A stretch of DNA of 64,000 bases from a virus (UHGV-1358930), one strand, 5' to 3'. Numbered from the stretch's first letter, positions 1 to 58,646 are shown. The notes: generated by a model not told the origin, from the letters alone. Program-made: numbers and translations.

Positions 1-239
1 CATGTAACAGCCTATCATTTGGCGGAGTACTGACAGCACTTAATTCGGAAGTTATCTGTGACAAAGAAAAGTTCAACAAGATTATGGACATGACTCCGTT
101 AAGGAAGTGGGCTACAGCTGAAGAGTGTGCAGAATGGACATACTTCATCTCAGTTGTAAATAAATCAATGTCAGGACAAGATATCATTATCGATAACATG
201 GAAACTAGAAACAATCAGTTTGTTTGGTAAAGTATTCAA

Positions 240-300
240 AGAGAGTTTTGTATTCCTTTGAAACCCTCTCTGAAAATAAAAATAATAAGGAGAAGTAAAA
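240..300 (+). promoter_or_regulatory. Candidate preQ1-I-like riboswitch/translational leader upstream of the que operon: P1 hairpin AGAGAG(240-245)/CTCTCT(266-271) with 20-nt loop, then A-rich tail containing the SD AAGGAG (288-293)
   Basis: Hairpin + A-rich tail ending in SD resembles preQ1-I aptamers (AGAG...CCCUCU + AUAAAAAACUAAGG); located directly 5' of queF; loop longer than canonical. Confidence 0.3.
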
Positions 301-302
301 AA

Positions 303-1814
303 ATGCTAAAATCAAACAATGGAAGAACATCCGAAGACTTATCAGGAGTAACTCTACTTGGTAATAACAACACTGAGTACAACTACGACTATACTCCAGA
401 AGTTCTAGAAACATTTGTAAACAAGCATCCTGACAACGATTATGTTGTCACATTTGATGCTTATGAATTTACAAGCAAGTGTGTCACCGGAGACACTATG
501 ATAGATGTTGCATGTAATGAAACTGACAATCCGGATGGAATTCCAATCAAAGATTTGGTAGGTACAGAAGGATATGTGTTTTGTGTAGATCCCACTACAT
601 TACAACCATTATGTAGGAAGTATCGAGATGTACGAAAGACTGGAGAAAGTGTACCTGTAGTTAAAGTACTCATGCAAAGTTTGAGAACAGATGGAAAGGG
701 TAACACATACTATGAATCTTCTGAAATCAAGTGTACACCTGATCATATGATATTGGTGAAAAAAGGATTCCATGATAGCGAATGGGTGTGTGCAAAAGAT
801 CTCAAACCTGGCATGAGGTTGATTGCAAATCAAAGAAGTGGAGATGTAATACGATCTAAACTTCGACACAGACTTATTGGGGAAGCAATTTTTGATGAAG
901 ATATTATGAATATTCATCATATAGACGGTAATCATTACAATAATGACCCATCTAATCTATCTAATTTATCTTCTCATGATCATCACCATCTTCATAGATC
1001 TCAAGAATATGGATACGATAATTTAGATGTATCATACTTAGTTGATCTGTATAACTCCGGAGAAAACTTCAACTCCATAGCAAAGATGTTCAACTGTGAT
1101 GTATCTACCATTGAATCTAGAATAGGTAATATAGTTGGAAGACGGACACAATCAGAGTCATTATCACTACGAAATAACTTGTTGAATAAAGAGCGGGATA
1201 GCGAAATCTGTGAATTGTACAACAAAGGATACTTGCTATCTGAAATTGCAGATTACTTAAATATCCACAGTACAACAGTGTTAGGAGCACTAGAAAGACA
1301 CGGCATCCCTCGCAGAGAATCGAACTTCTCTAGGTACAATCGAAAGAAATTGAACCTCCCACCATTGAATCATAAAGTACTAGCTGTACTAGATGGTGGA
1401 TATGAAGATGTGTACAACATGGAAGTAGAAGGAGTTGAAAACTATTTTGCCAATGAAGTGATAGTCCATAACTGCCCAAAAACGGGGCAGCCAGATTTTG
1501 CAAAAGTTGTAATTAGTTACATTCCTAATGAGAGAATGGTTGAAAGCAAGTCCCTAAAGCTTTACCTCTTTTCTTTCCGCAATCATGGAGATTTCCACGA
1601 AGACTGCATGAACATCATCATGAAGGATCTAATTCATCTTATGGATCCGAAGTACATTGAAGTAAAAGGTATTTTTTCTCCAAGAGGAGGTATCTCCATC
1701 TTTCCCTTTGTTAACTACGCGAATCCGAAATTTAATTATCAGGATTTTGCAAAGTCTCGAATGCTGGAGGCGCTTAGAGATTCGAGCAATAGAACAGTAA
1801 GATACGATATGTGA
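303..1814 (+). CDS. queF: NADPH-dependent 7-cyano-7-deazaguanine reductase QueF (preQ0->preQ1), interrupted by an intein (ORF track start 258 is a TTG inside the leader hairpin; ATG 303 has SD AAGGAG)
   Basis: Exteins 'EFTSK|C..' and '[18 protein letters not shown]...[19 protein letters not shown]' match QueF catalytic motif E(F)TSLCPxTGQPD; intein splice signatures C...HN|C. Confidence 0.8.
480..1472 (+). mobile_element. Intein (~331 aa) inserted at QueF catalytic Cys; contains HNH homing endonuclease motif ([17 protein letters not shown]) and two HTH (sigma-70 region-4-like) repeats
   Basis: Starts '[10 protein letters not shown]' (block A), ends 'VIVHN' followed by Cys+1 'CPKTGQPD'; HNH motif HHIDGN..N. 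Confidence 0.8.
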
Positions 1815-1912
1815 AACAACGGGAAGATATAAATATAGTAAAGTCTGTAGATACGTACAGCAAAAAAAAGCAGCAAACTCTAGAATAGATTACAATTACT
1901 TAGAAAGGTTAG

Positions 1913-2656
1913 ATGAAAATGGAAAACAAAAGAAATTCAAACAAAAAAGCGTTGGTGCTCTCGTCAGGTGGAGTAGACTCCACTACTTGCGTAGGTATTG
2001 CTGTAAATGAATTAGGTTCTGAAAATGTTAGCACTGTATCGGTGTTTTATGGACAGAAACACAATAAAGAACTTGAATGCGCTGAAAAAGTAGCTGAATT
2101 TTATAATGTAAAGCACTATGTTCTTGACTTGTCTAATGTCCTTCAGTACAGCAACTGTTCTCTAATGAAGAACAGCACAGAAGAAATCCCTATGATGAGC
2201 TACGCAGAGCAGATTGAAAAGAATGGTAAACCATCAACAGAAGTTCCATTGAGAAATGGACTCATGCTCATGGCAGTTGGCTCATTAGCTATGCAACTTT
2301 ATCCAGAAGCTGATGTCGATATTTACATTGGAGCACATGCCGATGATGCTGCAGGTAATGCTTATCCAGATTGCTCTGCAGAATTCATTCAAAACGTAAA
2401 AGAAGCAATATTGATTGGATCTAGATATAAAGTTAACTTAGTTTCTCCATTTGTGAATCATAACAAATCAGAAGTTGTTAAATTAGGGTTATCTATAGGT
2501 GCTCCGTATGAATTAACAACTTCCTGTTACAATGGCAGAGAGAAAGCTTGTGGATTGTGTGGAACCTGCAGAGATCGTATAGCTGCATTCAAAGCAAACA
2601 ATGCAATTGACCCAATTGAATATGAAATTGACGACCCATTCAAAGAAATGCGATGA
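1913..2656 (+). CDS. queC: 7-cyano-7-deazaguanine synthase QueC
   Basis: PP-loop '[13 protein letters not shown]', C-terminal Zn-binding CGLCGTC typical of QueC. Confidence 0.85.
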
Positions 2657-2663
2657 TGTTCAA

Positions 2664-3260
2664 ATGGAAATATGGCGACCTGCTAAAGGATATGAAGATA
2701 AATATGAGGTGAGCAATTTAGGACGAGTAAGAAATTCAAAGCATTATATCATGAAACCACATCTACAAGATGATGGATATCTTTGGATATACCTTGCGTC
2801 TAAAACTAGTCCTAACAACACATCAATTCATAGGCTAGTTGCTAAAACGTTTATTCCGAATCCAGAAGGCAAACCGCAAGTAAATCACATAGACGGGAAC
2901 AAAACAAATAATCGAGTTGAGAATCTAGAATGGGTTACAGGATCTGAAAATGTTAAACATGCTTATGCCAATAATCTAATTGCAGACAAATCTCCTGAAG
3001 GCATCAGAAATATTGTAGCAGCAGCTAGAAAATCATTGAAGAAATATTGCAACATCCCGATAATATGTGAAACTACAGGGCAAGAGTTTGAATCTATTCA
3101 TCATGCTGCACTACATTATGATGTAGACGATACCACTATTCAAAACATCGTAAGAAATGTAACAAAAAGATCCAGAAAACTACCTGGATTGAAATTTAGA
3201 TTCAAATATCCAGAGATTACTTGTAGATCACCTCATAGAAAGAAACATTTAATTAAATAG
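2664..3260 (+). CDS. Free-standing HNH homing endonuclease (NUMOD4 + HNH_3) inserted between queC and queD
   Basis: '[11 protein letters not shown]' NUMOD4-like N-term; '[24 protein letters not shown]' HNH motif; internal Met after queC stop. Confidence 0.75.
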
Positions 3261-3276
3261 CTTTGGAGGAATGAGA

Positions 3277-3714
3277 ATGTATACAGTAAAAACAAAAGTA
3301 TCTTTTGAAGCTGCGCATCGTCTATACAATGTAGACACATACTCAAAAGAATGCAGAGATAATCTCCATGGGCACTCATACAAAGTAGAAATTGTCGTAG
3401 GCGCAGATAACTTGAACTCTGCTGGAATGGTTATTGATTTCAAGCTGCTAAAAACAGTTATTCGAGAAGAGATTGAATCTAAATATGATCATTCTTGTAT
3501 ATTGAGAAAATGCGATCCAATTGCAAATACTATCAAGGAAAACTGTAAGAAAGTTATCCTTGTTGACGAAAGTCCTACTGCAGAATGGATGGCAAAAGAA
3601 TTCTATGACATGATTGAATCTAAAGTTCATACGTATTCTTCTGATTTACATGTTGTTTCAATTGGAGTACAAGAAACAGAAAATAACATTGCGTATTATC
3701 TTCCGGAGGAATAA
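3277..3714 (+). CDS. queD: 6-carboxy-5,6,7,8-tetrahydropterin synthase QueD
   Basis: 'FEAAHRL...HGHSYKVEIVV' QueD/PTPS signature; SD GGAGGA 7 nt upstream. Confidence 0.85.
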   Translation: MYTVKTKVSFEAAHRLYNVDTYSKECRDNLHGHSYKVEIVVGADNLNSAGMVIDFKLLKTVIREEIESKYDHSCILRKCDPIANTIKENCKKVILVDESPTAEWMAKEFYDMIESKVHTYSSDLHVVSIGVQETENNIAYYLPEE

Positions 3715-3716
3715 AC

Positions 3717-4358
3717 ATGAAAGTTATCGAATTATTTAATAGTATTGATGGAGAGGGCAAACGAGCTGGTATGCTCGCTACGTTTATACGTCTGTCTACG
3801 TGCAATCTTAGATGCAGTTACTGCGATTCCGCTTACGCTTTCGATGATAAGCTTGCTGAAGAGATGTCAATTCAAAGTATTGTAGCAAACTGCGACAAAT
3901 ATGATTGTCCGCAAATTACGCTAACTGGTGGAGAGCCTTTGATTTCCAGAGACGTAGAGCTACTTTTATCCGAACTTGATTCTCATGGATATGACGTCAA
4001 TGTGGAAACAAATGGGTCTATTGATCCATCCGCATATCATAAATACAAAAATGTTTGGTTCACAATTGACTGGAAATGCCCTTCTAGCGGTATGGAGTCA
4101 AAAATGAATCCGAAAGCATTTGAAACACTTCGTGAGCAGGATGTACTAAAATTCGTAGTAGGGTCAAATGAGGACTTACAAGATGCGTTACACGTCATCA
4201 AGAAGTACAACCCAAAATGCTCAATCTATTTCAGTCCGGTATTTGGATATGATGCAAAAAATATCGTAGAATTCATGAAAGATCACAAACTGAATGATTG
4301 CAAAGTTCAGCTTCAAATTCATAAGTATATCTATGACCCGAATGCTAGAGGAGTATGA
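3717..4358 (+). CDS. queE: 7-carboxy-7-deazaguanine synthase QueE (radical SAM)
   Basis: '[10 protein letters not shown]' radical-SAM Cys triad; QueE-like length. Confidence 0.85.
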
Positions 4359-4951
4359 TCAAAGAAGGTGTTGATATGAAAAATATTGATAAAAACAAAA
4401 TTGAAAAGCTGACAAGAGAGCTCTTAGTAGCTTTAGGCGATGATCCTGACAGAGAAGGGTTGAAGAAGACTCCAAGTCGAGTTGCAAGAATGTGTGATGA
4501 ATTATTTGAAGGTATGACACATTCGAATCACGAGATAGCTGAAATGTTCAATACATGTTTTGAAGATGTAAAAACTGGAGATCTTGTAGTGGAGAGCAAT
4601 ATTCCGATTCACTCCTGCTGCGAACATCATCTCATGCTGATGTATGATATGTCAGTAGCTATTGGATACATTCCAAATGGTAAAGTTATCGGATTATCTA
4701 AGCTTGCTAGAATTTCTGACATGGTTGGAAAGCGACTTCAGTTGCAAGAACGAATCGGTTCAGATATCGCAGATATTCTCCACGAAATTCTCAATACCAA
4801 TGACATCATTGTTGTCATTCAAGGAAAGCACGGATGCATGACAGCACGCGGCATTAAATCAAGAGAAGCAATAACTCGAACAGCTACACTTAGAGGAAGA
4901 TTTGAGTCAGATTCAGATCTACGATCCGAATTCTATTCTCTCATCAAATAA
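4355..4951 (+). CDS. folE: GTP cyclohydrolase I FolE
   Basis: '[10 protein letters not shown]' FolE active-site motif; ~190 aa. Confidence 0.85.
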
Positions 4952-4990
4952 CTTACTTCTGGATACAGATAAGTAGATTGAATCGTTAAT

Positions 4991-5026
4991 GTAGACGTAC
5001 TAAACTATAGTGCGTCTACAATTTTA
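4991..5026 (+). terminator. Hairpin (gtagacgtac...gtgcgtctac) followed by T-rich run after the que/folE operon
   Basis: Imperfect 10-bp stem + 'aattttatata'. Confidence 0.4.
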
Positions 5027-5077
5027 TATACTTAGTTAAATTTTACGAAAATAATCTAAAGAAATGAGGTCAAATAA

Positions 5078-5689
5078 TTGAAAAAGCTGATTAGATCTTC
5101 AACAACTGCTGTATATTCAACGCAGATCGCACCAAAAATATTAGAAATTTGGATTGTAGATGATGTTCGGCACTGCAGCGCATCCATAGCAGCTGCAGAC
5201 GAAACTGCCGAAACTCGTGAAGGGCTAGAAACAGAGAAAACATCACAAAATAAAAATTCTAGAATAAGACGAATTGAGCCAAGTGCTGATATCGAAGAAT
5301 TTCTAAATAGTATGAAGAAAGCTCCTATTCTATTTATAGAAAGATCTGCAAAAAATTCGGCATTTTTGAAGTTATATAAAACATTATCTGGAAAATTGTT
5401 TGATGTGGCTGTAGCAAAAGAACTTCTGAATCAGCTTACAGTTTCTGATTATGTATATACTACGGAAAGTGATTCAGCTAATTACAAAGGAGATGAGTTA
5501 ATTGTATTTGAACCTGTGCATGATCTAGTATCTAGAAAAAATGGAGTTGTATTGAAAAATGTCGTAATCTATATGAAAATAGATAAAACAGAGTCAAACG
5601 AAGATGAGACAGTTTTAGTATCATTTCATTCCGCTGAATTTGAAGATGACAAACCGTATAGTTCTGCGAACAACAAGGAGGATAGATGA
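5078..5689 (+). CDS. Hypothetical protein (TTG start)
   Basis: ORF 203 aa with upstream GAGGT SD. Confidence 0.4.
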   Translation: MKKLIRSSTTAVYSTQIAPKILEIWIVDDVRHCSASIAAADETAETREGLETEKTSQNKNSRIRRIEPSADIEEFLNSMKKAPILFIERSAKNSAFLKLYKTLSGKLFDVAVAKELLNQLTVSDYVYTTESDSANYKGDELIVFEPVHDLVSRKNGVVLKNVVIYMKIDKTESNEDETVLVSFHSAEFEDDKPYSSANNKEDR

Positions 5690-6165
5690 GGTACATGAAA
5701 ATTTTTGCATTTGCGGATAAGAAAGATAGCATCAAAGACAAATTGAAAGAGAAATCAGATGATTTAGTATATCACCTCGTGAAAGTATTTTTGTTCCCTA
5801 ACTGCGAAGTGAAACCTCACTGGTGTCAAGAAATCTACGGATTTATTCACAGCGTACCTAAAACTAAAAACAAGAATAAGTTCCCAGACAAGACTTTCAT
5901 CTTCAATAACACTTACGAAATCTGGGGAGATACAATTGAATCCTGTATCATAACTGCTATAAAGGATTATCCTAGTATAGTGCCATTATTTGATCAGCAC
6001 ACCGGGTTAGCTATCTGCGAAACTGCAGTTAGAGAGTATTTTGAATGGTTATCTGAGGAGCTATCTAGTATCGGAAGAGTCGCATCTTCAGATGTATACA
6101 AGAAGATTGATGAGCTAATCGAAGAAGTAGTTCAAAAATTGAATAACACAACATATGCACTATAA
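5686..6165 (+). CDS. Hypothetical protein
   Basis: 159-aa ORF overlapping upstream stop (ATGA coupling). Confidence 0.45.
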   Translation: MRYMKIFAFADKKDSIKDKLKEKSDDLVYHLVKVFLFPNCEVKPHWCQEIYGFIHSVPKTKNKNKFPDKTFIFNNTYEIWGDTIESCIITAIKDYPSIVPLFDQHTGLAICETAVREYFEWLSEELSSIGRVASSDVYKKIDELIEEVVQKLNNTTYAL

Positions 6166-6221
6166 GGAAAAGAAATCTGAACTGAATCATCAAAACGATA
6201 GGAATAAAGGAGAATTTGCTT

Positions 6222-6692
6222 ATGTATGTTAGGAAAATTATGACAGACACAACAAAGCATGCAATGGAGACATTGATGCGAAACATTGGAGGACCGTTTG
6301 GAGCTGCAATTGTTAAAAACGGAGAAGTAATCTGTGTAGAATCAAATTCGGTGTTAAGGGATAAAGACCCAACAGCACATGCGGAAATGAATGCTATTCG
6401 ATCTGCATGCAGAAAGTTGAAGACTTACGATCTAAGTGACTGCGAATTGTATGCAACTGGCAGCCCTTGTCCTATGTGCTTAAGTGCAATAATCTGGGCA
6501 AATATCAAGACAGTATACTATTCTGGTACGTACGAAGATTGCAAGAAGATTGGATTTAGAGATGACTTCATTTTCAATTTCATCAAGAATGATTGCAAGA
6601 ACGATGATATTGTTAAACTAGAATTGCATGACAATGATCTGGCAAATACATTGTACAACGCATATGAAACATTCTCAGGAGAATTATACTAA
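6222..6692 (+). CDS. CDA-fold guanine deaminase-like protein (GuaD-like)
   Basis: 'GGPFGAAIV...DPTAHAEMNAIRSA...GSPCPMCLSAIIWA' closely parallels B. subtilis GuaD (GGPFGAVIV...HAE..PCPMC), ~156 aa. Confidence 0.6.
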   Translation: MYVRKIMTDTTKHAMETLMRNIGGPFGAAIVKNGEVICVESNSVLRDKDPTAHAEMNAIRSACRKLKTYDLSDCELYATGSPCPMCLSAIIWANIKTVYYSGTYEDCKKIGFRDDFIFNFIKNDCKNDDIVKLELHDNDLANTLYNAYETFSGELY

Positions 6693-6693
6693 C

Positions 6694-7092
6694 ATGTACA
6701 GCATGCAAACTTCAGAATTTAATCTAACTGAACACTTGAAACGATACGTCAATTACACAGAGGTTATAATCTTTCCAGACGGACACATTGAATATGCGAT
6801 TCCTTCGCACCAAGAGAAACTTATTTCTATATTGTGTAGTATGGAGCACAAATCGCGACAACAAGTTATAGACGAAACACCCCCAGAATATTATTTTGAT
6901 TGGCTGAACTATTTACTCAATAAAACAGGATGTATTTCGGTTTGGTTTGATTTCATCATCACTACAAATCGCATGACAGATGCGCAAAACGACACAATTA
7001 TCAACTTGATACAATCTGGAGCAGTGCGATTAGACAAGAATAAGAATGAACCTAATATTTATTTGAAATATAGCAAATATGCAAGAAAGTGA
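6694..7092 (+). CDS. Hypothetical protein
   Basis: ORF with internal ATG after GGAG. Confidence 0.4.
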   Translation: MYSMQTSEFNLTEHLKRYVNYTEVIIFPDGHIEYAIPSHQEKLISILCSMEHKSRQQVIDETPPEYYFDWLNYLLNKTGCISVWFDFIITTNRMTDAQNDTIINLIQSGAVRLDKNKNEPNIYLKYSKYARK

Positions 7093-7475
7093 TTCTTATG
7101 AAAAAACGAGTAATAGAAATTCCTGAAATATCAAATTTCGCATTTGTGCTCAATTCCTCCGAGATATTGTCTTCTATATCCACTCGAGATCTTCTCAAAA
7201 ATATTGTAAGGTGTAGATCATCTAACATATGGGGATATGGTATAAATGTCAAGGATAAAAAAGACAGAGTCGGAAACATGATCATTCAATTCAAAAACAA
7301 ATACGGCGGACCTGACGATGTATACATGTATTACGATGTACCTATTGAGGTGTATAGAAGGATGATAACCGCACCAAGTAAGGGTCACTATATGTGGTAC
7401 AATATCCGTAACAGATACAAGTATTCAAAGTTAACTGGAAATAAGCGTGGAGTTTTACCTAATGCAGTGAATTGA
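7089..7475 (+). CDS. Hypothetical protein
   Basis: 128-aa ORF, translationally coupled. Confidence 0.4.
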   Translation: MILMKKRVIEIPEISNFAFVLNSSEILSSISTRDLLKNIVRCRSSNIWGYGINVKDKKDRVGNMIIQFKNKYGGPDDVYMYYDVPIEVYRRMITAPSKGHYMWYNIRNRYKYSKLTGNKRGVLPNAVN

Positions 7476-7546
7476 AGAAAATGGTATCACAAGAAAAATC
7501 AAAATATCTGTAAGCAAAATAAAATTTCTTAGATGGATGTGTATGT

Positions 7547-7834
7547 ATGAGATATTTGATTGCGTATGTTCCTTATACTAGACGAGAGGAGAACATTGAG
7601 CTTATATTTTGCGATACGGTAAGAGAACTGCTACAAGTGATTGTAGAAAATATCGGATGTGCTCCTGTGGAATATTATGAAGACGGAGTTTTCTACGATT
7701 ACGACGGATATGAAGTTGATTTCTCGTTGCAGTCCTGCTTGTCTTACTTGAAGGAGCATTTCGTCGGTGATGGGTCTTACGGTGCTGTTTTGCTAACTAT
7801 CGCAAAGGGCAGAACTGTTCTGTTCCAAGGCTGA
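7547..7834 (+). CDS. Hypothetical protein
   Basis: 95-aa ORF. Confidence 0.35.
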   Translation: MRYLIAYVPYTRREENIELIFCDTVRELLQVIVENIGCAPVEYYEDGVFYDYDGYEVDFSLQSCLSYLKEHFVGDGSYGAVLLTIAKGRTVLFQG

Positions 7835-7878
7835 TAGATTCTACAATAAGGCTAAGTCAAAATAAAATAAGGATCGTT

Positions 7879-8058: not shown

Positions 8059-8712
8059 ATGGATGTAGTAAAGAATATGCGTGGAAGTATTTGGTGGTTG
8101 AAAGACGAATTTGATAAATACAAAGGTGAAAGAGGCATCCTTAGAGGTTCTAGGCCGGTTATCATTATGAATAATCCAGCAAACGAATATAATGATTGCA
8201 CTATTACATATTTGCCGATTTCTAAGTGCGAATCTCATGCTGGTGATGATAGTCGAATTCAAATGTTTTATCAGGTACCTATTCAGATTCCTGGTAATAA
8301 ATCTAGTTATGTATGTTGTAATAGCATCATGACTACAACTACTTCTCATCTTGGAGAATATGTTGGGCAGATTTCAGAAGATAAGCTAAAAGAAGTCGAA
8401 GCCGAATTGATGCGTTATCTTTCTCTTTCTGAAAAAGTCGTTACACGAGAAGTAATAAAAGAGGTTAGGGATACAGACAAGGCAACGAAAACAACTTCTT
8501 TTTCTATTACAGACGCTGTCGCTTGTCCAGAACTCAAAAAAGTATATTCTAGTTGTACTGAAATGGCTAAAGATCTTAACTGCTCTCCTGCGTCTATCAG
8601 CAAGTCGAGTAGATGGGGAAGTAAGCTGATGCACAAATACACAGTGTTTAAAGTAGCAACGGCTGCTGGAAACTATGTTTGCAAAACTAAGGAGGAAATC
8701 AAAAATGAGTGA
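8059..8712 (+). CDS. Hypothetical protein
   Basis: 217-aa ORF. Confidence 0.4.
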   Translation: MDVVKNMRGSIWWLKDEFDKYKGERGILRGSRPVIIMNNPANEYNDCTITYLPISKCESHAGDDSRIQMFYQVPIQIPGNKSSYVCCNSIMTTTTSHLGEYVGQISEDKLKEVEAELMRYLSLSEKVVTREVIKEVRDTDKATKTTSFSITDAVACPELKKVYSSCTEMAKDLNCSPASISKSSRWGSKLMHKYTVFKVATAAGNYVCKTKEEIKNE

Positions 8713-10499: not shown

Positions 10500-11740
10500 C
10501 TCCCGTATCAATTGATGAAATTCTGAAATATTGAAATATTTAATAAACTGAGTAATGTGTAGAATATTGTGAAAACTGAAAATATGAACCTTTGTTAATC
10601 TTACATGTAGAGGTATGTTTAAATCTACAAATATATTATATGAACTTAGTTAGCAGAAGTCAATGTAAATTAGCCAATTCATATCAAAATTTTTATTGAA
10701 ATCAGCAGATTTTCAGAATTTTGAAGTTTTACACAATTTGATCTAACTATAAAGCTAGATAGGAAATAACTATAACAAGCTGTTTGGCATATAGATATGT
10801 TATAGCGAGACTTGAATAGCACTATAAGATAAATAACACGAACTTATCGCAATATCCGAAATTTAGAAATATTGAAGATTTGTGTATGGATCATCTTAAA
10901 CATTGAAATCTACAAAATCTACAATATCTGAAATTTTGAGATATTGTAAATTTGAATACTTTAACATACGTATATTGAATGTGCTTAAAAGATTAAATTT
11001 TCGTAAATTATTTTATTTATAGTTAAAATTTATGATTTGTTAATAGTTATAAACAGTATAAAAGTGATCTATTATTATAAGTGTCACCGTCTAGGTATAT
11101 ATGTATTCAATATATCATATAGTAGATATGTAAGTATTATATATCAAGCACATATCAAAATACTATAGCAAACTAAGTTATATAGGTAATCCCTATATCA
11201 AGGTGTAATCTATATACAGTAATCCCTCACAGCGTAAGTTGAGCATAAACAATGAAATTGAGACATGTAGATATATTATCGCTATATATCTAAACAAATT
11301 GATATAGTATTGACATATAGAGAATCACGTGATATTATAGCAAAACTTCATGGTTATGAAACTTCTATGTAACAAAATCAGTCAGAAACCACCAAAATTT
11401 GAATATTTCAGAATATTGAAATTTCAATAATATGTAAATTTTACAATCTTTCAGAATCGTGAATATTTCAAAATATGAAAATTTCAACTTTCCGCTAAAA
11501 TCACCAGAATTTAGTAAAATTGAAAGAATATGAAAATTTGATGCCTTCAATCTTTCAGAATCTGGTCATTTGGCCGCTTTAATATTATTAAAGAAATTAA
11601 AGTAATTAAAGTTATAATGTTATTAAAGTTATTTTAAAGGAATTAGCCAATTAAAGTAAAAAAGAATTAAAGTAAAAACTCGCAAGCTCGTTTTTACTTT
11701 TTGGTTTGTAATCTGAGAACATAAATTCTGTCAGTAGATA
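10500..11740. repeat. AT-rich non-coding region with dispersed short direct repeats (gaaatattgaaatatt; tttcagaat; gaatatttca(g/a)aat; atgaaaatttcaa; >=6 copies of ATTAAAGT at 11590-11690)
   Basis: No credible ORFs; multiple repeated 8-15-mers; candidate early-promoter/origin/host-takeover region. Confidence 0.5.
11310..11338 (+). promoter_or_regulatory. Consensus sigma-A promoter TTGACA-17-TATTAT
   Basis: ttgaca(11310-15) + 17-nt spacer + tattat(11333-38). Confidence 0.55.
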
Positions 11741-15191: not shown

Positions 15192-15768
15192 TTGTATATA
15201 TACACCATATTGTACATACAAACAATGCGACTTAGCTTGTCCTAATAGAGCTGAAGTGAATTGTTGGTTCAAACGATGCCGACTTGATATGTCAAATAAT
15301 TGCTTGCATACTAATATCCGAAATATTGAGAAAGCCGAGGATCTACTAAGTAACAAGTATGGAGAAACTGTGTGGTTTCCCACAGATAATCCTTCAGATG
15401 CAAGCGACACTATTTGCTACGTAGCTATTTGCAAATATGGTAAAGGTACTGCTCTTGGAAACGGAATATACAATCTGGATTTTGCAAAATTTATAGATAT
15501 GATCAAGGAGTCCTGGAATACGCATTTTGAAACAGATAACTTAATTCAGATGCGTGTGTGGTCTTTGTCTGCAAATTACCTAGTTATCTCAAATCTAGAT
15601 TATGTTAGATTTCAAGATTTTGAAAGTCAAACGTTGCTAAGGCTTCTGAATGATCGAAGAGATTATACAAAGACAACTGTAGTAGTTACTAGTAAAGAAC
15701 CTTTGGTCGGCAGCGGAAATTTCTTTCCTAGATTGACTTCTTTGCTAAAGGGGGTCAAGAGCAATTGA
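15184..15768 (+). CDS. Hypothetical protein (194 aa), possibly replication-associated
   Basis: Immediately precedes dnaB with overlap. Confidence 0.4.
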   Translation: MHDCIYTPYCTYKQCDLACPNRAEVNCWFKRCRLDMSNNCLHTNIRNIEKAEDLLSNKYGETVWFPTDNPSDASDTICYVAICKYGKGTALGNGIYNLDFAKFIDMIKESWNTHFETDNLIQMRVWSLSANYLVISNLDYVRFQDFESQTLLRLLNDRRDYTKTTVVVTSKEPLVGSGNFFPRLTSLLKGVKSN

Positions 15769-18188
15769 CGAATTCAGTAGAACTTCAAGTTATTTGTAAA
15801 ATTTTAACAAGTCAAGATGATTCTGAAATTGATAGGCTGTGTGCGTTTGATGAATCCTATTACGCAGTATTCAAAGATCAGATCAAATTTATTCTAGATC
15901 ATAGAGAAAAATATCATACTGTCCCAGACTTGTTTACGTTCCAAGCTCAATTCGAAGACATTGTTTTGATTGATGTAAACGAATCTGCAGATTTTTTAGT
16001 AGACGGACTTCGGAAAAACAAGCAGCAGATCATACTCTTACAAACATTCAATAAGCTATCTGAGTTAGGTTCTGCAGACGTTTCTGAAGCTTGGCAGTTC
16101 TTACAATCCCAATGCGACAAAGCTGCTCAACTTGATAATTCTAACCCGATGGATATCATCAAAGAAGCTCACAAGCGAAGTGATCAAGTTTTATCGCTAA
16201 GTAATCAAACAAGAATTCCTACAGGATTCAAAGAAGTAGATGAAACAATGTATGGAGGATTGTCAACTGTTGAAGAACTTTGTCTTGTAGTTGCTAGAAC
16301 TAACACAGGTAAAGCTCAGCCTCTTTGGAGTAATATCTTAACACCTACTGGGTGGAAGCGTATGCGAGATATTCAAGTAGGAGACATTGTATGCGGTAGA
16401 GATAATGACAATGGTAAAGTAGTTCAAATATTTCCGCAAGGTACAATTGACTACTATCGTGTAAAGTTTGATGATGGTACTTATACGGAGTGTTCTGCAG
16501 ATCATCTTTGGGAAGTTCTGGATAGTGAACGAAGGAAGCATGATAGAAAAACTTATGGTCAGTATCTTACATTGACTACTCGAGATATTCGGAATCATAT
16601 GTATCGCAGATACTCTGTTGATATGTGTGAACAAATTGAATTCGAGAGTGCTTTTGATACAGATAGTGAACTTGACGGATATTTTTTAGGAGCATTTATC
16701 GGGCATGGTAGAAATGTAGGTAACAAGCTATATATTCATTCTCTGTCCGATGTTTCAAAGCGACGTATAATTGATGCATTGTCTAAATATCGTTGTCAAT
16801 TCACAGAAAATGATCCAAATACACTCGTGATTGAGGATAAGAATGATGGTAAGCTTATCCAAAAGATGTTCGAGTACAACTTGATGAACTGCAAAGTCAT
16901 TGATAGACATATTCCGGATATATATTTTCATAGCCCTGTAAATGTTAGAAAAGCTCTGTTATCAGGTCTCTGCGATACAGATAGCACAATGTTATCAAAA
17001 AATCATAGAGGTTGGGTTTTCGTTACATCTTCAGATCAGCTTAAATCTGATTTTGTTTACATTGCTAGATCTTTAGGTGTAAAAGCAAAGGTGTCGACTG
17101 CAAGATCTGGTAGATGGGTTGACTTAGGTGTATCGCACGTTGCGAATACGTACCACAGGGTTATGTGTATCTCAAAATTCAATCCGTTTTATGGTTCACC
17201 AAATTACACAGAATTTGAACGCAGACAGGATAAAACTAAATTTAAAAATCGCAAGCGTGTTTGCAAATTCATTGATTCTATTGAATACGTAGGTAAGACG
17301 GAATGCCAGTGTATCATGGTAGACAATAAGACGCATACATATATTACAGATGATTTTATTGTCACACATAACACCTGGGTTACTACTAAGATGATGGAGT
17401 CTGCACAAGCGAATGGATTTCCTGTACTATATTATAGCCCAGAGATGCAATCTGCTTTCATTGGCACACGATTTGATACCTGGAGAGGTCACTTCCGAAA
17501 TAGCGATATTCAACGAGGTAAATACAGCGAAGACTACATTCAGTACATCAAAGACATTGTTAAAGAGGAAACTGGTGCATTTGTTGCAGAAGACAAAGAT
17601 ATGCCAGGAGGAAAAACAACTGTCAGGTCGATTGAAACTCTAGTCAAGCGACATCATATAAAGCTTGTTATCATTGATGGTCTGTCTTATATGGCAGATA
17701 CAGAAAAGTCTGATAGCGATGTTATTAAGTATAAAAATATATGTACTGGACTATTCCGAATGTCTAAAACATATGGATGTGCTGTAGTAGTATCTGTACA
17801 AGCTAATAGAGACACTAAATCTAATGTCGATGACAAAGGAGTCCCGTGGCCTGATATGTATTCGATTGAAGGCTCAGACCATCCAGGACGTATTGCAACT
17901 CAAGTATTTGCGCTTCGACAATTGTACGAAGAGCATACATTAGAGATAAAGCTGTTGAAGACTAGAAATGCAAAGAATGCAAATCCTACGTTCGCATATG
18001 TATGGGATCCAAATACAGGAAACACAGAGTTTGTTTCGGATGATGCATCGGCTGCTCCTCCTTCTGCTCCTGCACAGCCTAGCAAGTTCTCAACGCCGAC
18101 AGTGTCAGCAAAGATTGTACACACCGATATAGATGATAATCTAATCGATGCCAGTACAGATGACGATCTAGATGACGTTGAGTTTTGA
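15765..18188 (+). CDS. dnaB: DnaB-family replicative helicase interrupted by an intein in the Walker A (P-loop)
   Basis: N-extein ends 'ARTNTGK', C-extein resumes 'TWVTTK' reconstructing GxxxxGKT; downstream RecA-like fold motifs. Confidence 0.75.
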   Translation: MTNSVELQVICKILTSQDDSEIDRLCAFDESYYAVFKDQIKFILDHREKYHTVPDLFTFQAQFEDIVLIDVNESADFLVDGLRKNKQQIILLQTFNKLSELGSADVSEAWQFLQSQCDKAAQLDNSNPMDIIKEAHKRSDQVLSLSNQTRIPTGFKEVDETMYGGLSTVEELCLVVARTNTGKAQPLWSNILTPTGWKRMRDIQVGDIVCGRDNDNGKVVQIFPQGTIDYYRVKFDDGTYTECSADHLWEVLDSERRKHDRKTYGQYLTLTTRDIRNHMYRRYSVDMCEQIEFESAFDTDSELDGYFLGAFIGHGRNVGNKLYIHSLSDVSKRRIIDALSKYRCQFTENDPNTLVIEDKNDGKLIQKMFEYNLMNCKVIDRHIPDIYFHSPVNVRKALLSGLCDTDSTMLSKNHRGWVFVTSSDQLKSDFVYIARSLGVKAKVSTARSGRWVDLGVSHVANTYHRVMCISKFNPFYGSPNYTEFERRQDKTKFKNRKRVCKFIDSIEYVGKTECQCIMVDNKTHTYITDDFIVTHNTWVTTKMMESAQANGFPVLYYSPEMQSAFIGTRFDTWRGHFRNSDIQRGKYSEDYIQYIKDIVKEETGAFVAEDKDMPGGKTTVRSIETLVKRHHIKLVIIDGLSYMADTEKSDSDVIKYKNICTGLFRMSKTYGCAVVVSVQANRDTKSNVDDKGVPWPDMYSIEGSDHPGRIATQVFALRQLYEEHTLEIKLLKTRNAKNANPTFAYVWDPNTGNTEFVSDDASAAPPSAPAQPSKFSTPTVSAKIVHTDIDDNLIDASTDDDLDDVEF
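16314..17372 (+). mobile_element. DnaB intein (~353 aa), class-3-like (N-terminal Ala, Thr+1), with LAGLIDADG homing endonuclease motifs (LDGYFLGAFIGHG; KALLSGLCDTDS)
   Basis: Begins 'AQPLWSN' right after GK, ends 'FIVTHN|T'; block F Cys 'ECQCIMVD'. Confidence 0.65.
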
Positions 18189-18262: not shown

Positions 18263-18420
18263 ATCACACCAGATTTGAAAATAAACATTAAATACCTTTA
18301 TTTTCTTAATCTGTTCCTCTTTCAACGACCTTGCTTGACAAGTCAAGTCTTACTAGATCTCCAGAGGCGTTAATTTCCGCTTGTGCAGCGGTATTTGTTA
18401 TTTTTAGGAGAAAGCTATTC
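18263..18420 (-). ncRNA. Putative TnpB omega-RNA (reRNA) scaffold at tnpB 3' end/right end of element
   Basis: Conserved (>90% identical) in second copy at 63718-63880 while flanks diverge; position matches known omega-RNA location. Confidence 0.4.
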
Positions 18421-19540
18421 TCAAGCCCTCGTTCAATATATTCTTTGATGCATTGATATCTCTATCATGTGTTGTTTGACAATTAGGACAAGTCCAATTT
18501 CTAACTTCAAGATTTTTGACTTCTGGATTTTTGAATCCGCAACAGCTACAAGTTTGAGAAGACGGAAAGAAGGCGTCTATTTTGACAAGTTGTTTTCCAT
18601 ACCAGCTGCACTTGTAAGTCAATAGTTCAACGAATTTTGACCAGCTTGCGTCTGAAATTGCTCTTGCTAGTTTATGATTCTTGACCATATTTTTGACTTT
18701 CAAGTCTTCAACACAGATTATGTCGTGGTTTTTGACAAATTCTGTTGACAGCTTGTGCAAGAAATCATTTCGTTGATTTGAAACTTTCTCAAATTGTTTA
18801 GCAAGTCTGATTCTTGATTTGTTTCTGTTATTAGATCCTTTTTGCTTCTTCGAGAGCTGTCTTTGAAGTCTTCTTAACTTCTTAGTAGACTTTGAAAGGT
18901 ATTTCGGATTTTTGATCTTTTCACCGTCTGAAGTTATTGCGAAATCTTTGATGCCGAGGTCAATTCCTACAACAGATCCAGTTTTGTCAAACTCTTCAAT
19001 TTCAACATCTTTGCAACAGATACTTGCAAAATATTTTCCTGAAGCTGTTTTTGAGATGGTTGCCGAAAGCGGAGTTCCTTTGACATTTAAATTTCCTTTG
19101 AATTTAACCCATTTCAATTTAGGCAAGAAGATCTTGTTATCTAAACAATGAAATTGTGCAGGTGTGGAGTATGTAGCCTTATATGACTGTCTACTTGAAA
19201 GTTTCTTCTTAAATTTAGGATAACCTGGTTGCTTTCCATTCTTTACGTTTCTAAAGAAGTTTTGATACGCAGTATCAAGATCTCTAAGAGACGATTGCAA
19301 AGCCATTGCTTCAGGTTCTTTCAACCATGAATATTCGTCAAGCTTCTTGAGCTTTGTTAAATCTGCAGAATTTTGATTATATGTATTTGACTTTCTTGCC
19401 TCTTCATAATCTTTGATGGATTTAGCAAGATAGTAGTTGTAGACAAATCTGCAGCAGCCAAAGGTTTTTGCAATTTGCTCAATCTGCTGCTTGTTCGGAT
19501 ATATCCGTATTTTATAAGCTTTCAGAATCATTTTGGTCAT
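18404..19540 (-). CDS. tnpB: TnpB (OrfB) RNA-guided nuclease-like transposase accessory protein, IS605/IS607 family
   Basis: '[11 protein letters not shown]...FGCCRFVYN' N-term; C-terminal Zn finger 'CSCCGF...[18 protein letters not shown]'. Confidence 0.8.
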
Positions 19541-20132
19541 CTGAAAGTGCCTCCTTGATTTTAGCTACGCTTCTCTTAGAATACATTTTCATTGAGTAAC
19601 AGTGCAGTAAACTTACGATTTCTTCAAAAATTTCTTCAGAATCAAGTTTTTCGGATCCTAGTTGGGACGCAACAACTATCTCTGTTCCAAATTTTCTAAA
19701 AAGATGATAAAATAGATCAAATCCTACTCTAGACAGTCTGTCTTTATAATTGATAACTACTTTCTCAACTTTATATTCCAATACATCGTCTAATAGTTCA
19801 AAAAACTGTTTTCTGTTTTCAAAAGAAATTCCGGAAGCAACCTCTTGAAAAACACCATCGACTTGAATTCCGGAATTCATGCAAAAACTGTTCAAAGATT
19901 CAAGTTGGTTCGCTAGATCCGATTTTTGAGATATTGTAGAAACTCTAGCGTAGATATAATTTTTTCTTGTTTGACCGTTATTTAATATAGAGTAGACGTC
20001 TTTATCATGATAGATGCGCTTACCTGTAGGTGTTAAGTCATAATGAATGAGTCCTCTTTTGCAATAATGACCAAGTGTTGGCTGTGAAATATTCAATAGT
20101 TGTAACACTTGTTTAGCTTTCATATTGATCAC
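19512..20132 (-). CDS. tnpA: IS607-type serine recombinase TnpA (MerR-like HTH + resolvase catalytic domain)
   Basis: '[17 protein letters not shown]' HTH then '[14 protein letters not shown]' catalytic Ser motif. Confidence 0.75.
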
Positions 20133-23039: not shown

Positions 23040-23747
23040 TTGGAGGATTTACAAATGGCTAAGAGAATCAGATTCAACGATATTTCCCGTTTCGACAAAA
23101 ACAACAGAAGAAGAATTGCTCATGGCTCAGATCCTATTCCGGTTGTTAGACCCTTCCGTGCAGCGTATCTGATGTTCCGTGACTATCTCGATTATGACAG
23201 ACCGCTGACTTATAATGAATGGATGAATCGTCTGGAATCAGATAAGGCAGCGGCTTTATATGTTCAGTTCTACGATCAGATTCAGCTTGCTTGGTACAAA
23301 GCAAAAAGCTTCTATGCTGTTGAAGAAGATGGCGTGTCTACAATGATGCAATATCTTATGAAGAATGTTCCTGTCATCAACAAAGACGAAAAGCGCTTCA
23401 CACCTCGTTATATATATCGTGTAGCTTACAACTGCTTGTATTGCATCTGTCATGACATCAAAGTTGATAAAGACAGATGGGAGTTAGAGAGCAGCAATAT
23501 TACATCTAATTCCGATGAAGAAGAAGTAGATGTGTTCAATTTCATTCCGTCTAATTTTGACATTGAGCGAATGATGAATGAAGAAAAATTCTGGAAGGCT
23601 ATCATGTCTCAAGACGAAGATACAATTACATATGTGGATTGCGTCATCAATCATACAAGATTTCCTGCGGGTATGAAAGCTAGAAGTCCTAAGATCATCG
23701 CAAAGTTAAAGGTAGTTCTTTCAGAACTGGCTGATGAGGAGTTCTAA
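23040..23747 (+). CDS. Hypothetical protein (235 aa)
   Basis: SD GGAGGA upstream. Confidence 0.5.
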   Translation: MEDLQMAKRIRFNDISRFDKNNRRRIAHGSDPIPVVRPFRAAYLMFRDYLDYDRPLTYNEWMNRLESDKAAALYVQFYDQIQLAWYKAKSFYAVEEDGVSTMMQYLMKNVPVINKDEKRFTPRYIYRVAYNCLYCICHDIKVDKDRWELESSNITSNSDEEEVDVFNFIPSNFDIERMMNEEKFWKAIMSQDEDTITYVDCVINHTRFPAGMKARSPKIIAKLKVVLSELADEEF

Positions 23748-24174
23748 AATGAAACGTACTATCACTCAAAGTATACGAGTAGAGCTCAGCTATCTGATGA
23801 AGCTAAACGGAAAGCCTCTATTGAATTCACATGCCTATCGAGTTGAAGCTACGATTTGCAATAATTCTAACATTGGCAGGATGATGGATTTCGAGGATAT
23901 ATCAAAACTACTGTTTGAGGCTATCCCAACGAATTCATTTCTCATTTCTACATCAAGCGAAGAAGCTGAGTTAGAAGTAGCTAAAGCGCTGAAGCAGTTT
24001 GGAGTTCCTGTAATTGTATATTCTGAAGAGCTCTGTACAGAGAACTTGTTGATGCTATTCGTCAAATCCATAAATCAAAAACTAGCAGAATATTCAGACA
24101 GTTTAAGTTCATACGAACTGGTAGAGCTTAAGCTTTGGGAAACCGATAATTATTGTGCTACTTACGTAGCATAA
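23734..24174 (+). CDS. Hypothetical protein (146 aa)
   Basis: Coupled ORF. Confidence 0.4.
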   Translation: MRSSKMKRTITQSIRVELSYLMKLNGKPLLNSHAYRVEATICNNSNIGRMMDFEDISKLLFEAIPTNSFLISTSSEEAELEVAKALKQFGVPVIVYSEELCTENLLMLFVKSINQKLAEYSDSLSSYELVELKLWETDNYCATYVA

Positions 24175-25096: not shown

Positions 25097-26365
25097 TTGA
25101 GTTTATTTACCAAGTCACAAATGGCGAAATTCAATGAAGTTGCCGAACGAAGCAAACAGCTTAACAAAGAAAAACCAAAGTCTGTAAATGTATCTACAGT
25201 AAATGCGGAATTGAAGTCGATGTCAGATTCTGTGCTAGAATACTTCAAAGACTCCCCTGCTATCTGCATTCGAACCGCTGATCAGCTACATGAATACATT
25301 GATAAATGTATCGAAGCTGGATACGCTGGTATAGATACAGAAACAACGGGACTAGACAGACAAAGAGATTACATTGTAGGCGCGTCTTTATATTATCCGG
25401 ATGGTACAGAATGTTATATTCCGATGAAACATAAGATCCCTATTTTCGAAACTCCTTACAAAAATCAACTGTCTTATGAAGAAGTAACTAAAGAATTCAA
25501 ACGACTAGAAAACAGCAACATACGACTCATTTTTGCAAATGCTGACTTCGACTTAGCAATGATCTACAAGGATCTAAAAGTTGATTTCAACGATAGATTC
25601 TATTATGATGTTATTCTTGCATGGCGTTGTTTGAAGGAGAATGAGTTACACAATGACTTGAAATTCCTTTACAATAAATATGTATTGAAAGGAAAAGGAG
25701 ATCCTAAACGTTTTAGCGATTTCTTTTCTGTAAAGCTGTTCCCATATTCTGATCCTGAAATCGCTAAATTGTACGCAGCAAACGACGCAAAAATCACATT
25801 TCAACTGTTCAAGTGGCAGCTTCCTTATGTTACAGAAAGTCATCCTAAGTGTCAGAAAGCTCACCTAGAAGCAATATCTAGACTCATTTGGAACATAGAG
25901 TTTCCACTGGTTAAAGTCTGCCAGAATATGTATAGAAGAGGTTCATACATTGATTCTAATGTTGCTAGTGTTTTGAAAAAGCGATACAGAGATGAATACA
26001 ATGTAGAAGTCAAAAAGCTACAAGACATGGTACAAAAAATCATTGATAATACGAATATAGCATATTCAGGTAAACGTCCATTTACTAGAGGAGCAGATTT
26101 CAACCCATCTTCACCTCCTCAAGTTAAATATTTGATATACAATCTACTTCAAATTCCTAAAGGATCGTCTTCTGGAACAGGTAAAGAAGTATTGAACGAA
26201 CTTAATCTGCCTGTAACAAATCAGATACTGAAGGTAAGATCTCTATCTGTACTTATCAATACATTCGTAGAGAAGCTACCAGCTGCCGCAAGTCTGGATC
26301 ATAGAATTCATGGTCAGTTCAAGCAGGTGGGTGCAGCCACGGGCAGGTTGTCTTGTGCCGAGCCT
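25097..26365 (+). CDS. polA: DNA polymerase I (family A) exon 1: 3'-5' exonuclease domain and N-terminal polymerase part, ends '...TGRLSCAEP'
   Basis: Exo I 'GIDTETTGLD'; '..ATGRLSCAEP' = TGRLSSxxP motif; ORF then runs into intron. Confidence 0.75.
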
Positions 26366-27271
26366 AAACATGATAAATCAGATTGGGCTCGTAAAATCGA
26401 GTTAATTCAGGGAAGGGTAGCAGCTTGACGCTGTGAGATAACCCTGAGCCAAGGCTCTCATATATCTACTTAGGAGGTACACGATATGAGAAAGATTCAA
26501 TTCAATGAAGAGACCATCAATGCAATTAAAAATTTTATAGAGTCTGGTCACACAATGGAAGAGACATGTAACAGATTTACGCTCAAATACGATACATTGA
26601 AACGTGTAATGTTTGAGAACAATCTGAAGCCGTATAGAGCAGATAAATCACATCCCGTTATCTTCACTAGAGATGAGGAAAACATCGTATGTAAGCTATA
26701 TTCGACAACTTCAATGACAATGAAAGATATCTGTAAAGAAGTGAAGCTACCTGATTACGCTGTGCAGAAAATACTATCGGATAATTTTTCTGAAAAATAC
26801 AGAAATGAAAGGAAAGCAAAGCTTTATAGATTGTCCAAACGGTGCGAGAATAGTCCGTGGTTTCAGAAATACGGAGCAGACTCTTCTCAGTGGGTCGGAG
26901 GCGTTGTAGACGATGGCAACGGATATGATATGATCAAAAAACCTGAGTGGTACACAGGTAGAAAGTGTTCTGATTATGTCTTTTTACATACAGTTGTGAT
27001 GTGTGAGCACTTAGGTCTAACTGAACTTCCTAAAGGATATGTAGTACATCATATCGACGGAAACAAGAAAAATAACACAATAGATAATTTAGCGTTGATG
27101 ACCGTGTCAGGACACAGTAAGTTACATTTGTTGATGAAGAATCTATGCAAGGTGCAGAGACTATCCGAACAGGAGTAAGCGAAAGCTGAAATGCTAGACA
27201 ATGGTTGTGTATGACATCTATCATTCCTACTAGTTATACAAGCCATCGAAGATATAGTCCACAAATAATTG
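26366..27271 (+). mobile_element. Group I intron 1 in polA carrying an HNH homing endonuclease ORF
   Basis: Exon ends in U, intron ends in G; canonical S element AAGATATAGTCC at 27249-27260; exon 2 resumes 'NLMNIP'. Confidence 0.65.
26486..27178 (+). CDS. Intron-encoded HNH homing endonuclease (I-HmuI-like)
   Basis: 'GYVVHHIDGNKKNNTIDNLALMTVSGHSKLH' HNH motif; SD AGGAGG. Confidence 0.75.
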   Translation: MRKIQFNEETINAIKNFIESGHTMEETCNRFTLKYDTLKRVMFENNLKPYRADKSHPVIFTRDEENIVCKLYSTTSMTMKDICKEVKLPDYAVQKILSDNFSEKYRNERKAKLYRLSKRCENSPWFQKYGADSSQWVGGVVDDGNGYDMIKKPEWYTGRKCSDYVFLHTVVMCEHLGLTELPKGYVVHHIDGNKKNNTIDNLALMTVSGHSKLHLLMKNLCKVQRLSEQE

Positions 27272-53806: not shown

Positions 53807-53822
53807 TTGAGGTAATATATTG

Positions 53823-58609: not shown

Positions 58610-58646
58610 AGAGCAGGCAACGATTGTCTGCTCTGTTTTGCTGTTT
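58610..58646. terminator. Bidirectional terminator between convergent genes (agagcag...ctgctct + GTTTTGCTGTTT)
   Basis: 7-bp stem, T-rich 3'. Confidence 0.5.

Follow-up and report, generated by a model that had tools for sequence, protein, structure and literature searches.

A predicted preQ1-type DNA-modification pathway with an intein at the catalytic cysteine of QueF in an uncultured gut-type phage

Which base would a phage put into its DNA when its genes for 7-deazaguanine synthesis are interrupted by mobile elements? The question is raised by a stretch of 64,000 nucleotides (64 kb) of the virus UHGV-1358930, here called the window. At its start, the genes queF, queC, queD, queE and folE for synthesis of 7-aminomethyl-7-deazaguanine (preQ1) from GTP lie in one cluster, with an intein inside queF; queC and queD are separated by a gene for an HNH homing endonuclease. 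A further gene at 39984-40949, dpdA, encodes a DpdA1-type DNA-guanine transglycosylase. The phage is uncultured, has a T4-like portal and comes from gut-type metagenomes; genomes of its relatives measure 124-148 kb, and we put the source genome at roughly 125-150 kb. We suggest, with a probability of about 0.75, that preQ1 would be made from GTP and inserted post-replicatively by DpdA1 at a subset of guanines, giving restriction-protective 2'-deoxy-7-aminomethyl-7-deazaguanosine (dPreQ1), while the intein and the HNH gene would be selfish.

Genes for preQ1 synthesis

Family-specific hidden Markov models recognize all five enzymes and their signature motifs are present, in agreement with the initial annotation, which had described a clustered GTP-to-preQ1 gene set. 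All five genes are intact and lie on the plus strand, spanning 303-4951. The queF open reading frame (ORF; 258-1814) matches PF14489 (E = 1.8e-32) and TIGR03139 (149 bits versus a cutoff of 87), the latter in two stretches because of the intein. It is followed by queC, for 7-cyano-7-deazaguanine (preQ0) synthase (1913-2656; PF06508, E = 1e-52; TIGR00364, 157.4 bits versus a cutoff of 150.3); queD, for 6-carboxytetrahydropterin synthase (3271-3714; PF01242, E = 3.4e-27; TIGR03367, 84.3 bits versus 89.25); queE, for the radical-SAM 7-carboxy-7-deazaguanine (CDG) synthase with its CNLRCSYC cluster (3717-4358; TIGR03963, 260.8 bits versus 260.1); and folE, for GTP cyclohydrolase I (4355-4951; PF01227, E = 2e-62; TIGR00063, 187 bits versus 181.6), whose start overlaps the queE stop codon (ATGA).

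The cluster had originally been given the span 258-4951. Its end holds, and its start moves to the ATG at 303, which has the ribosome-binding site AAGGAG just upstream (287-292). Position 258 is a TTG, merely the mechanical start of the ORF, and coincides with the -35 hexamer of a promoter-like site on the plus strand (TTGAAA, a 17-nt spacer and AATAAT; 258-286). This site has the top consensus score in positions 1-5400 (10/12), as a consensus match only, in a region where the number of such matches is not above chance. Directly 3' of folE, a consensus scan places a terminator-like hairpin on the same strand (a 13-bp stem, then a T-rich tail; 4990-5020). The positions of both elements fit a putative single queF-to-folE operon. 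An Rfam scan at gathering thresholds returned no preQ1 riboswitch and no group I intron, and a tRNA scan found no tRNA.

The QueD signature reads Cx4HGH, one residue longer than the canonical CxxxHGH found in phages Dp-1 and Flasso and in the related locus L017 (L numbers denote loci compared here). The form EC[RK][DE]NLHGH is conserved in QueD of the phage family (the window and L009-L020) and, as read from these sequences, is under purifying selection. Another PTPS/QueD-like T-fold ORF lies at 23734-24174 (E = 1.4e-5, 25% identical to real QueD). We rejected it both as a QueD and as a DpdL, a QueD paralogue that carries the motif LxxxHRHxF and acts as CDG decarboxylase (PMC10516641): it reads LLNSHAY and has neither CxxxHGH nor LxxxHRHxF. 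No homologue of it was found in the phage database, and a search of 5.8 billion proteins gave three clusters, all very close relatives.

Around folE, an extra short folE-like fragment (residues 11-70, 48-50% identity) lies about 180 nt 5' of the full gene in L010, L011, L013 and L015, and a divergent folE (41% identity) is present in L014 and L016, which suggests gene replacement or recombination inside the cluster. Two conserved ORFs with no assigned role (5078-5689 and 5686-6165) separate folE from a deaminase gene considered below.

The DpdA transglycosylase

The plus-strand ORF at 39984-40949 has no match in Pfam or NCBIfam; it matches phrog_887, 'queuine tRNA-ribosyltransferase' (E = 1.2e-41). 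By tblastn, the nearest DpdA of an isolate is that of Bacillus phage Flasso, 38% identical at 93% coverage (E = 1e-49). Streptococcus phage Dp-1 gp7 is 39% identical over 74% of the query (E = 2e-42), Cellulophaga phage phiSM DpdA is 35% identical over the core (E = 1e-18), and the proteins of Nonagvirus JenP1 and Seuratvirus VogelGryff, annotated as DpdA, are about 24% identical (E about 1e-12 to 1e-13). Dp-1 (YP_004306895) and phiSM (YP_007675729) stand in the DpdA (9g-type) column of the table of Hutinet et al. The family comprises 652 close metagenomic clusters, with 2471 representatives at E < 1e-3, and 32 of 80 related viral loci have queC no more than 10 kb from dpdA. An AlphaFold model, computed with 31 family members in the alignment (mean predicted local distance difference test score 86.9), predicts the TIM-barrel fold of the tRNA-guanine transglycosylase (TGT) superfamily. 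The 36 best Foldseek matches to it in the PDB all belong to this superfamily, nearly all of them tRNA-guanine transglycosylases and two of them Cap10 chains, and matches in BFVD are phage 'queuine tRNA-ribosyltransferases' that include nt-1 DpdA2 and phiST DpdA3. The phrog_887 match, the tblastn homologues and the modelled fold thus bear out the original assignment of a TGT-superfamily, DpdA-like gene to these coordinates.

Its catalytic residues can be proposed from conservation. Among 57 representatives (25-62% identity) the sole invariant residues are D57, S58, D93, H137, H197, S214 and D216. In a bacterial DpdA, D95 is the general acid/base, D130 and H181 recognize the base and D256 is the nucleophile; alanine mutants of both catalytic aspartates are dead, and the catalytic Asp pair and the base-recognition Asp and His are invariant in TGT and DpdA (PMC10164549). 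The phage residues D57, D93, H137 and D216 occur in the same order, spaced by 36, 44 and 79 residues versus 35, 51 and 75 in the bacterial enzyme, and in the model each is at or just past the end of a predicted beta-strand. When family alignments were compared with E. coli Tgt by hhalign, D57 was paired with D89 and only the DSG motif was aligned, so that the mapping of D93, H137 and D216 stays inferential. The initial annotation had named a lack of the TGT catalytic aspartates as what would speak against DpdA; conserved aspartates are in fact present, D57 through its alignment to Tgt D89, D93 and D216 with roles proposed from order and spacing only. Asp216 would then act as nucleophile and Asp57 as general acid/base, with Asp93 and His137 recognizing the base. 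Neither phmmer nor a 12-sequence profile allowed residues to be aligned usefully with those of solved TGT or DpdA structures; nor did a 57-sequence profile, which reached 7UI4 only at E = 1.9, or a trimmed C-terminal profile, which lost it. DpdA1 has a conserved His at 'position 196' that is missing in DpdA2 (PMC6884629), and we infer that the invariant H197 is this residue.

An intein at the catalytic cysteine of QueF

The presence of an intein in queF, already proposed in the initial annotation, is established here by intein-domain matches and by an exact empty site in a relative. The N-extein covers 59 codons (303-479, ending ...YEFTSK), the intein 331 amino acids (480-1472; PF14890, E = 1.8e-11; TIGR01443, 20.8 bits versus a cutoff of 15.6) and the C-extein 1473-1814, opening with the +1 Cys (CPKTGQPDF), all on the plus strand. 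The residues of a class 1 intein are present: Cys1 (CVTGDT), block B TPDH, C-terminal ...EVIVHN and the +1 Cys. HNH endonuclease and helix-turn-helix modules are embedded in it (HNH phrog_7545, E = 2.7e-13). Without residues 60-390, the 503-residue precursor is reduced to a QueF of 172 amino acids, of which 151 align without gaps to the B. subtilis enzyme (4F8B, E = 7.6e-67). The C-extein's +1 Cys aligns to the sole position at which entry 4FGC has Ala for Cys; we take 4FGC to be B. subtilis QueF with its catalytic, thioimide-forming cysteine mutated (C55A). The intein is thus inserted immediately before the catalytic Cys of QueF, and, on these alignments, one cysteine is both the +1 splicing nucleophile and the QueF catalytic nucleophile. 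The C-extein also contains ESKSLKLY, which corresponds to the QueF NADPH motif E(S/L)K(S/A)hK(L/Y)(Y/F/W) (PMC10516641). With both the catalytic Cys (B. subtilis Cys55) and this motif present, the protein is a reductase-type unimodular QueF, not a QueF-L.

The relative with the empty site, L009 (IMGVR_UViG_3300029032_000001), is collinear with window positions 1-472 and 1470-7483 at 97-99% DNA identity, exactly without the intein. In L009 the codons of the N- and C-exteins directly adjoin (6559|6560), and its extein protein is 100% identical to that of the window, N-extein included. Just 5' of the junction the two alleles show synonymous differences, ACAAGCAAG in the occupied allele against ACGTCAAAG in L009. 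A 376-bp stretch of the window (7484-7859, with an ORF at 7547-7834) is also missing from L009 and is the second indel between the two.

We found queF without an intein in all 11 related IMG/VR loci that have queF, and no intein nearby in any of 80 DpdA loci. About 95 clusters of a large protein collection join QueF to an intein-splicing domain. In at least about 60 of them a simple pattern check recovers the same junction, EF[TS][SA]x | C...HN | CPxTGQPD, and intein sizes range from 331-341 amino acids (with HNH) down to 139-183 amino acids (mini-inteins). On these sequence comparisons, the distribution is as expected of an established homing intein allele. Searchable literature, with subscription papers outside its scope, holds no mention of an intein in QueF, and as far as that literature shows the allele is new. 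For reference we also used the intein-less queF of MT836020.1 (L007), whose DNA is 77% identical to the window exteins and which served in no other role. The record was deposited as 'Bacteriophage sp.' and resembles bacterial DNA (CorA, YhhQ, QueC, QueF, DnaX).

Synthesis of preQ1 would depend on splicing, which might be redox-sensitive, both nucleophiles being Cys. Near-identical genomes with empty and occupied alleles make it possible to study cleanly how an intein homes to a catalytic cysteine, and the QueF intein allows one to test whether splicing gates a DNA-modification pathway.

Predicted base and competing explanations

In the pathway that we propose, FolE, QueD, QueE and QueC would convert GTP to preQ0, and QueF, a Bacillus-type unimodular NADPH-dependent nitrile reductase, would reduce free preQ0 to preQ1, gaining activity only once the intein has spliced out and the active site is restored. 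The DpdA1-type transglycosylase would, through the double-displacement mechanism of TGT, put preQ1 in the place of some of the guanines in DNA, and the resulting dPreQ1 would be expected to hinder host restriction enzymes. In published work, QueF of phiSM and of VH7D complements E. coli delta-queF (PMC10516641), VH7D DpdA2 prefers to insert preQ1 and inserts preQ0 without preQ1 (PMC10516641, Table 2), and DpdA1 systems modify 0.1-30% of G (PMC10516641). If the DNA is modified, resistance to many G-recognising restriction enzymes is predicted, and abnormal behaviour in sequencing and cloning may follow.

Several points weigh against this reading. The gene dpdA is 35 kb away from the que cluster, and its preference for preQ0 or preQ1 is not readable from sequence. 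D93, H137 and D216 are assigned to the active site from conservation, order and spacing. Active QueF hinges on predicted splicing. QueD, with Cx4HGH instead of CxxxHGH, scores 5 bits under the TIGR03367 cutoff, a small caveat. Finally, the window represents 64 kb out of at least 124 kb of genome, and an enzyme that modifies dPreQ1 could be encoded elsewhere.

Uncertainty over DpdA substrate and over splicing leads to one alternative, in which the DNA carries mainly the preQ0 nucleoside (dPreQ0) or a mix of dPreQ0 and dPreQ1, either because this DpdA1 prefers preQ0 as in 9g and CAjan or because splicing limits QueF. In its favour, preQ0 is what all DpdAs characterised up to 2019 insert, with lineage-specific shifts of substrate (PMC10516641); the intein physically splits the active site of QueF; and the VH7D enzyme cited above accepts preQ0 when preQ1 is absent. 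However, Dp-1, the closest characterised relative, has dPreQ1 only (PMC6884629), the intein holds every canonical splicing residue, and the intein-free queF alleles of sister phages are 80-100% conserved, which places QueF under selection in the phage family. We regard this outcome as unlikely. A little less likely still, dPreQ1 would be a mere intermediate, converted to a hypermodified base (mdPreQ1, fdPreQ1 or a new one) by an enzyme outside the window or unrecognised inside it. Further conversion does occur in phiSM and VH7D (DpdM) and in Flavobacterium phage immuto (DpdN), DpdM being a dPreQ1 methylase of DUF3109 with the motif CxxxCxxCC and DpdN a dPreQ1 formylase of PF00551 (PMC10516641). 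The limited coverage of the genome would leave room for such an enzyme, as would the two conserved ORFs 3' of folE. Yet when about 60 of the window's 81 ORFs that reach 90 amino acids, nearly all the long plus-strand ones among them, were scanned with Pfam, neither DUF3109 nor PF00551 was matched, and the sole DNA methylase-like ORF (61066-62817) is of N6/N4 type. With no DpdM or DpdN homologue among the scanned ORFs, dPreQ1 is most likely the final base.

The que genes could also serve tRNA queuosine, boosting queuosine-modified tRNA of the host, or pterin and folate metabolism. The enzymes are identical to those of the bacterial queuosine pathway, and phage-made preQ1 could also feed the host TGT, but the transglycosylase has a DNA-specific DpdA as its best structural match and is a member of the phage DpdA family; QueA, QueG and QueH were not found in the window; and all tested phages with such a gene set have modified DNA (PMC6884629, PMC10516641). 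We consider a role apart from DNA modification very improbable, and partial replacement of guanine by dPreQ1 remains the preferred reading.

A guanine-deaminase-like gene linked to dpdA and que genes

About 1.3 kb 3' of folE, the plus-strand ORF 6216-6692 (likely start ATG 6240) encodes a protein of cytidine deaminase fold that resembles Bacillus GuaD. It matches the generic dCMP/cytidine deaminase Pfam domain. Its top PDB match is B. subtilis guanine deaminase (bGD; 1WKQ/1TIY, E = 1.3e-32, about half of the residues identical over 112), followed by plant guanosine deaminase (5e-28), deoxycytidine deaminase (4e-27), TadA (2e-20) and dCMP deaminases (about 1e-6). Residues H55/E57, C85/C88, D116 and the terminal Y158 align at a +2 offset to 1TIY numbering. 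The Asp and the C-terminal Tyr therefore fall at bGD D114 and Y156, which we take to be substrate determinants in the bGD structure, the Tyr closing the active site.

The gene is kept at the same place in 9 of 12 related loci. A search of IMG/VR for relatives returned 36 loci (including L025-L057), and the C-terminal Tyr is present in 33 of them. Among these 33, dpdA and/or que genes lie within 9 kb in 24, in several gene orders; L038, for example, reads polA-dpdA-deaminase-queC-queD-queE-folE-dnaN, with a PF18909 gene further downstream (10559-11140). The linked lineages include some whose DpdA is only 25-37% identical to that of the window. In the reverse search, this deaminase gene lies within 10 kb in 18 of the 80 best DpdA1-like viral loci, most of the 18 being QueF-less, preQ0-type clusters. 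The gene is absent from the cultured DpdA phages examined. No paper in the searchable literature, defined as above, links a guanine deaminase to 7-deazaguanine systems, and within that scope the linkage is new.

DpdA has been assayed by guanine exchange (PMC10164549). Exchange of the TGT type would free guanine, which would compete for the covalent intermediate. Guanine being both leaving group and competitor, a guanine deaminase would remove the competitor. Judging from linkage and homology, the GuaD-like protein probably aids exchange by deaminating free guanine, while its C-terminal Tyr would spare 7-substituted 7-deazaguanines. With guanine removed, exchange would be driven forward and more of the DNA would become modified. 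The recurrent linkage suggests a simple way to beat the reversibility and guanine competition of TGT-type exchange. The deaminase may help to explain the wide spread of modification levels among DpdA systems, and could raise the yields of DpdA-type DNA modification in vitro or in E. coli.

Directly 3' of dpdA on the plus strand lies a gene for a MazZ-like protein (40963-41526; PF18909, dATP/dGTP diphosphohydrolase N-terminal, E = 2e-10). The adjacency is kept in L021-L024, although in some cases a homing endonuclease gene intervenes. Of 80 viral loci, 10 have a PF18909 protein close to dpdA, as does L038. No homologue adjoins dpdA in Dp-1, Flasso, phiSM, JenP1, VogelGryff or MS1, and a PDB search with the protein was uninformative. 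It is a possible accessory of the DpdA system. We offer only tentatively the wider proposal that the GuaD-like protein, perhaps with the MazZ-like one, is a functional accessory of DpdA and that, in addition, the efficiency of QueF splicing could set the ratio of dPreQ0 to dPreQ1.

Homing endonucleases and other insertions in the window

The initial annotation called the que cluster heavily invaded. This description is borne out by the intein and by the HNH gene between queC and queD, and similar insertions are found across the rest of the window. The HNH gene is free-standing, on the plus strand (2664-3260, within an ORF that opens at 2601), and is identified, as had been proposed, by domain matches (NUMOD4, E = 1e-12; HNH_3, E = 2e-11; phrog_59, E = 9e-53) and by its presence or absence among relatives. 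L009 and L010 carry it too, L011 and L012 have other HNH genes in its place, and L014, L015, L016 and L019 lack it and have queC directly next to queD; in L013 and L020 an HNH gene sits between queF and queC. A second free-standing HNH gene lies directly 5' of dpdA on the plus strand (39295-39816; phrog_59, E = 1e-24). It is missing there in L021-L024, and relatives have a NUMOD4 gene 3' of dpdA instead. The intein and the HNH genes are most likely selfish passengers, outside the pathway proper.

The DnaB-like helicase ORF (15765-18188, 807 amino acids) has a LAGLIDADG-type domain (PF05204) upstream of DnaB_C, probably a second intein of the window. Family A DNA polymerase is split over at least three ORFs (25097-26428, 29934-31460 and 31636-32301), between which lie one HNH gene (26486-27178) and two GIY-YIG genes (27710-28453 and 29142-29846); Rfam at gathering thresholds found no group I intron in this region. 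Between the helicase and Toprim primase genes, the minus strand carries an IS607-like pair (18404-20132) formed by a serine resolvase with a MerR-type helix-turn-helix (19512-20132) and a TnpB/OrfB_IS605 protein with a Cas12f-like TNB domain (18404-19540). In ORF 8059-8712 a PemK/MazF-like toxin domain (E = 9e-10) is joined by a weak DNA-binding motif, NUMOD1; the pairing is unusual, and the ORF is possibly a mobile nuclease.

DUF7487 occurs in three large ORFs (53820-55958, 58645-60303 on the minus strand, and 61066-62817). In the last it is fused to a region resembling N6/N4 DNA methyltransferases, so the phage may also methylate its own DNA.

Comparison with known systems

DpdA of the bacterial Dpd systems (PDB 7UI4) is only 14% identical to the phage protein. 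Its chain has 413-436 residues, about 100 more than the phage protein, and the segment missing from the latter may be the large insertion Ins8 (PMC10164549). The bacterial enzyme has a DpdB partner, not present here, inserts preQ0 and is part of a restriction-modification system. The deaminase shares the HAE and PCxxC zinc motifs with GuaD (1WKQ/1TIY), but genes of the window type are phage-borne and lie inside or beside dpdA/que clusters, and guanosine and deoxycytidine deaminases are nearly as similar. The QueF intein resembles class 1 inteins with HNH at enzyme active sites in Cys1, block B TxxH, the terminal His-Asn, the +1 Cys and the embedded endonuclease, in its insertion at a catalytic residue, and in the coexistence of empty and occupied alleles within one population. 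It differs in its host protein, QueF, and in that its +1 nucleophile doubles as the thioimide-forming catalytic Cys.

Among phage systems, phiSM-type phages have the same FolE-to-QueF pathway and DpdA, to which they add DpdM or DpdN, neither detected in the window. The immuto enzyme is DpdA3, and replacement there is complete. Flasso arranges the same genes in a different order. The closest analogue is Dp-1 (and MS1), whose gp1-gp7 encode QueF, QueC, QueD, QueE, FolE, QueT and DpdA, with the five biosynthetic genes ordered as here. QueF is of the same unimodular type, Dp-1 DpdA is the closest characterised relative of the window protein, and in both phages dpdA adjoins replication genes (clamp, Cas4-like nuclease). 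In UHGV-1358930, by contrast, dpdA is separated from the que genes, no QueT or YhhQ transporter gene is present, the intein and homing endonuclease genes break up the cluster, and the genome is 2-3 times larger, with a T4-like portal. The GuaD-like deaminase and the MazZ-like protein, both linked here, are lacking in the Dp-1 and Flasso loci. Dp-1 DNA contains 3389 dPreQ1 per million nucleotides, about 1.7% of G, and no dPreQ0 or 2'-deoxyarchaeosine (dG+) (PMC6884629). The initial prediction of dPreQ1 or a derivative for the window phage agrees with these measurements. Neither the likeness to Dp-1 nor the linked deaminase gene had been recognized in that annotation. As a close analogue of the characterised Dp-1 system, the core system is not in itself surprising and is less new than its intein and its linked deaminase; with it, the viruses known to modify their DNA with 7-deazaguanine would gain a lineage of large, gut-type phages.

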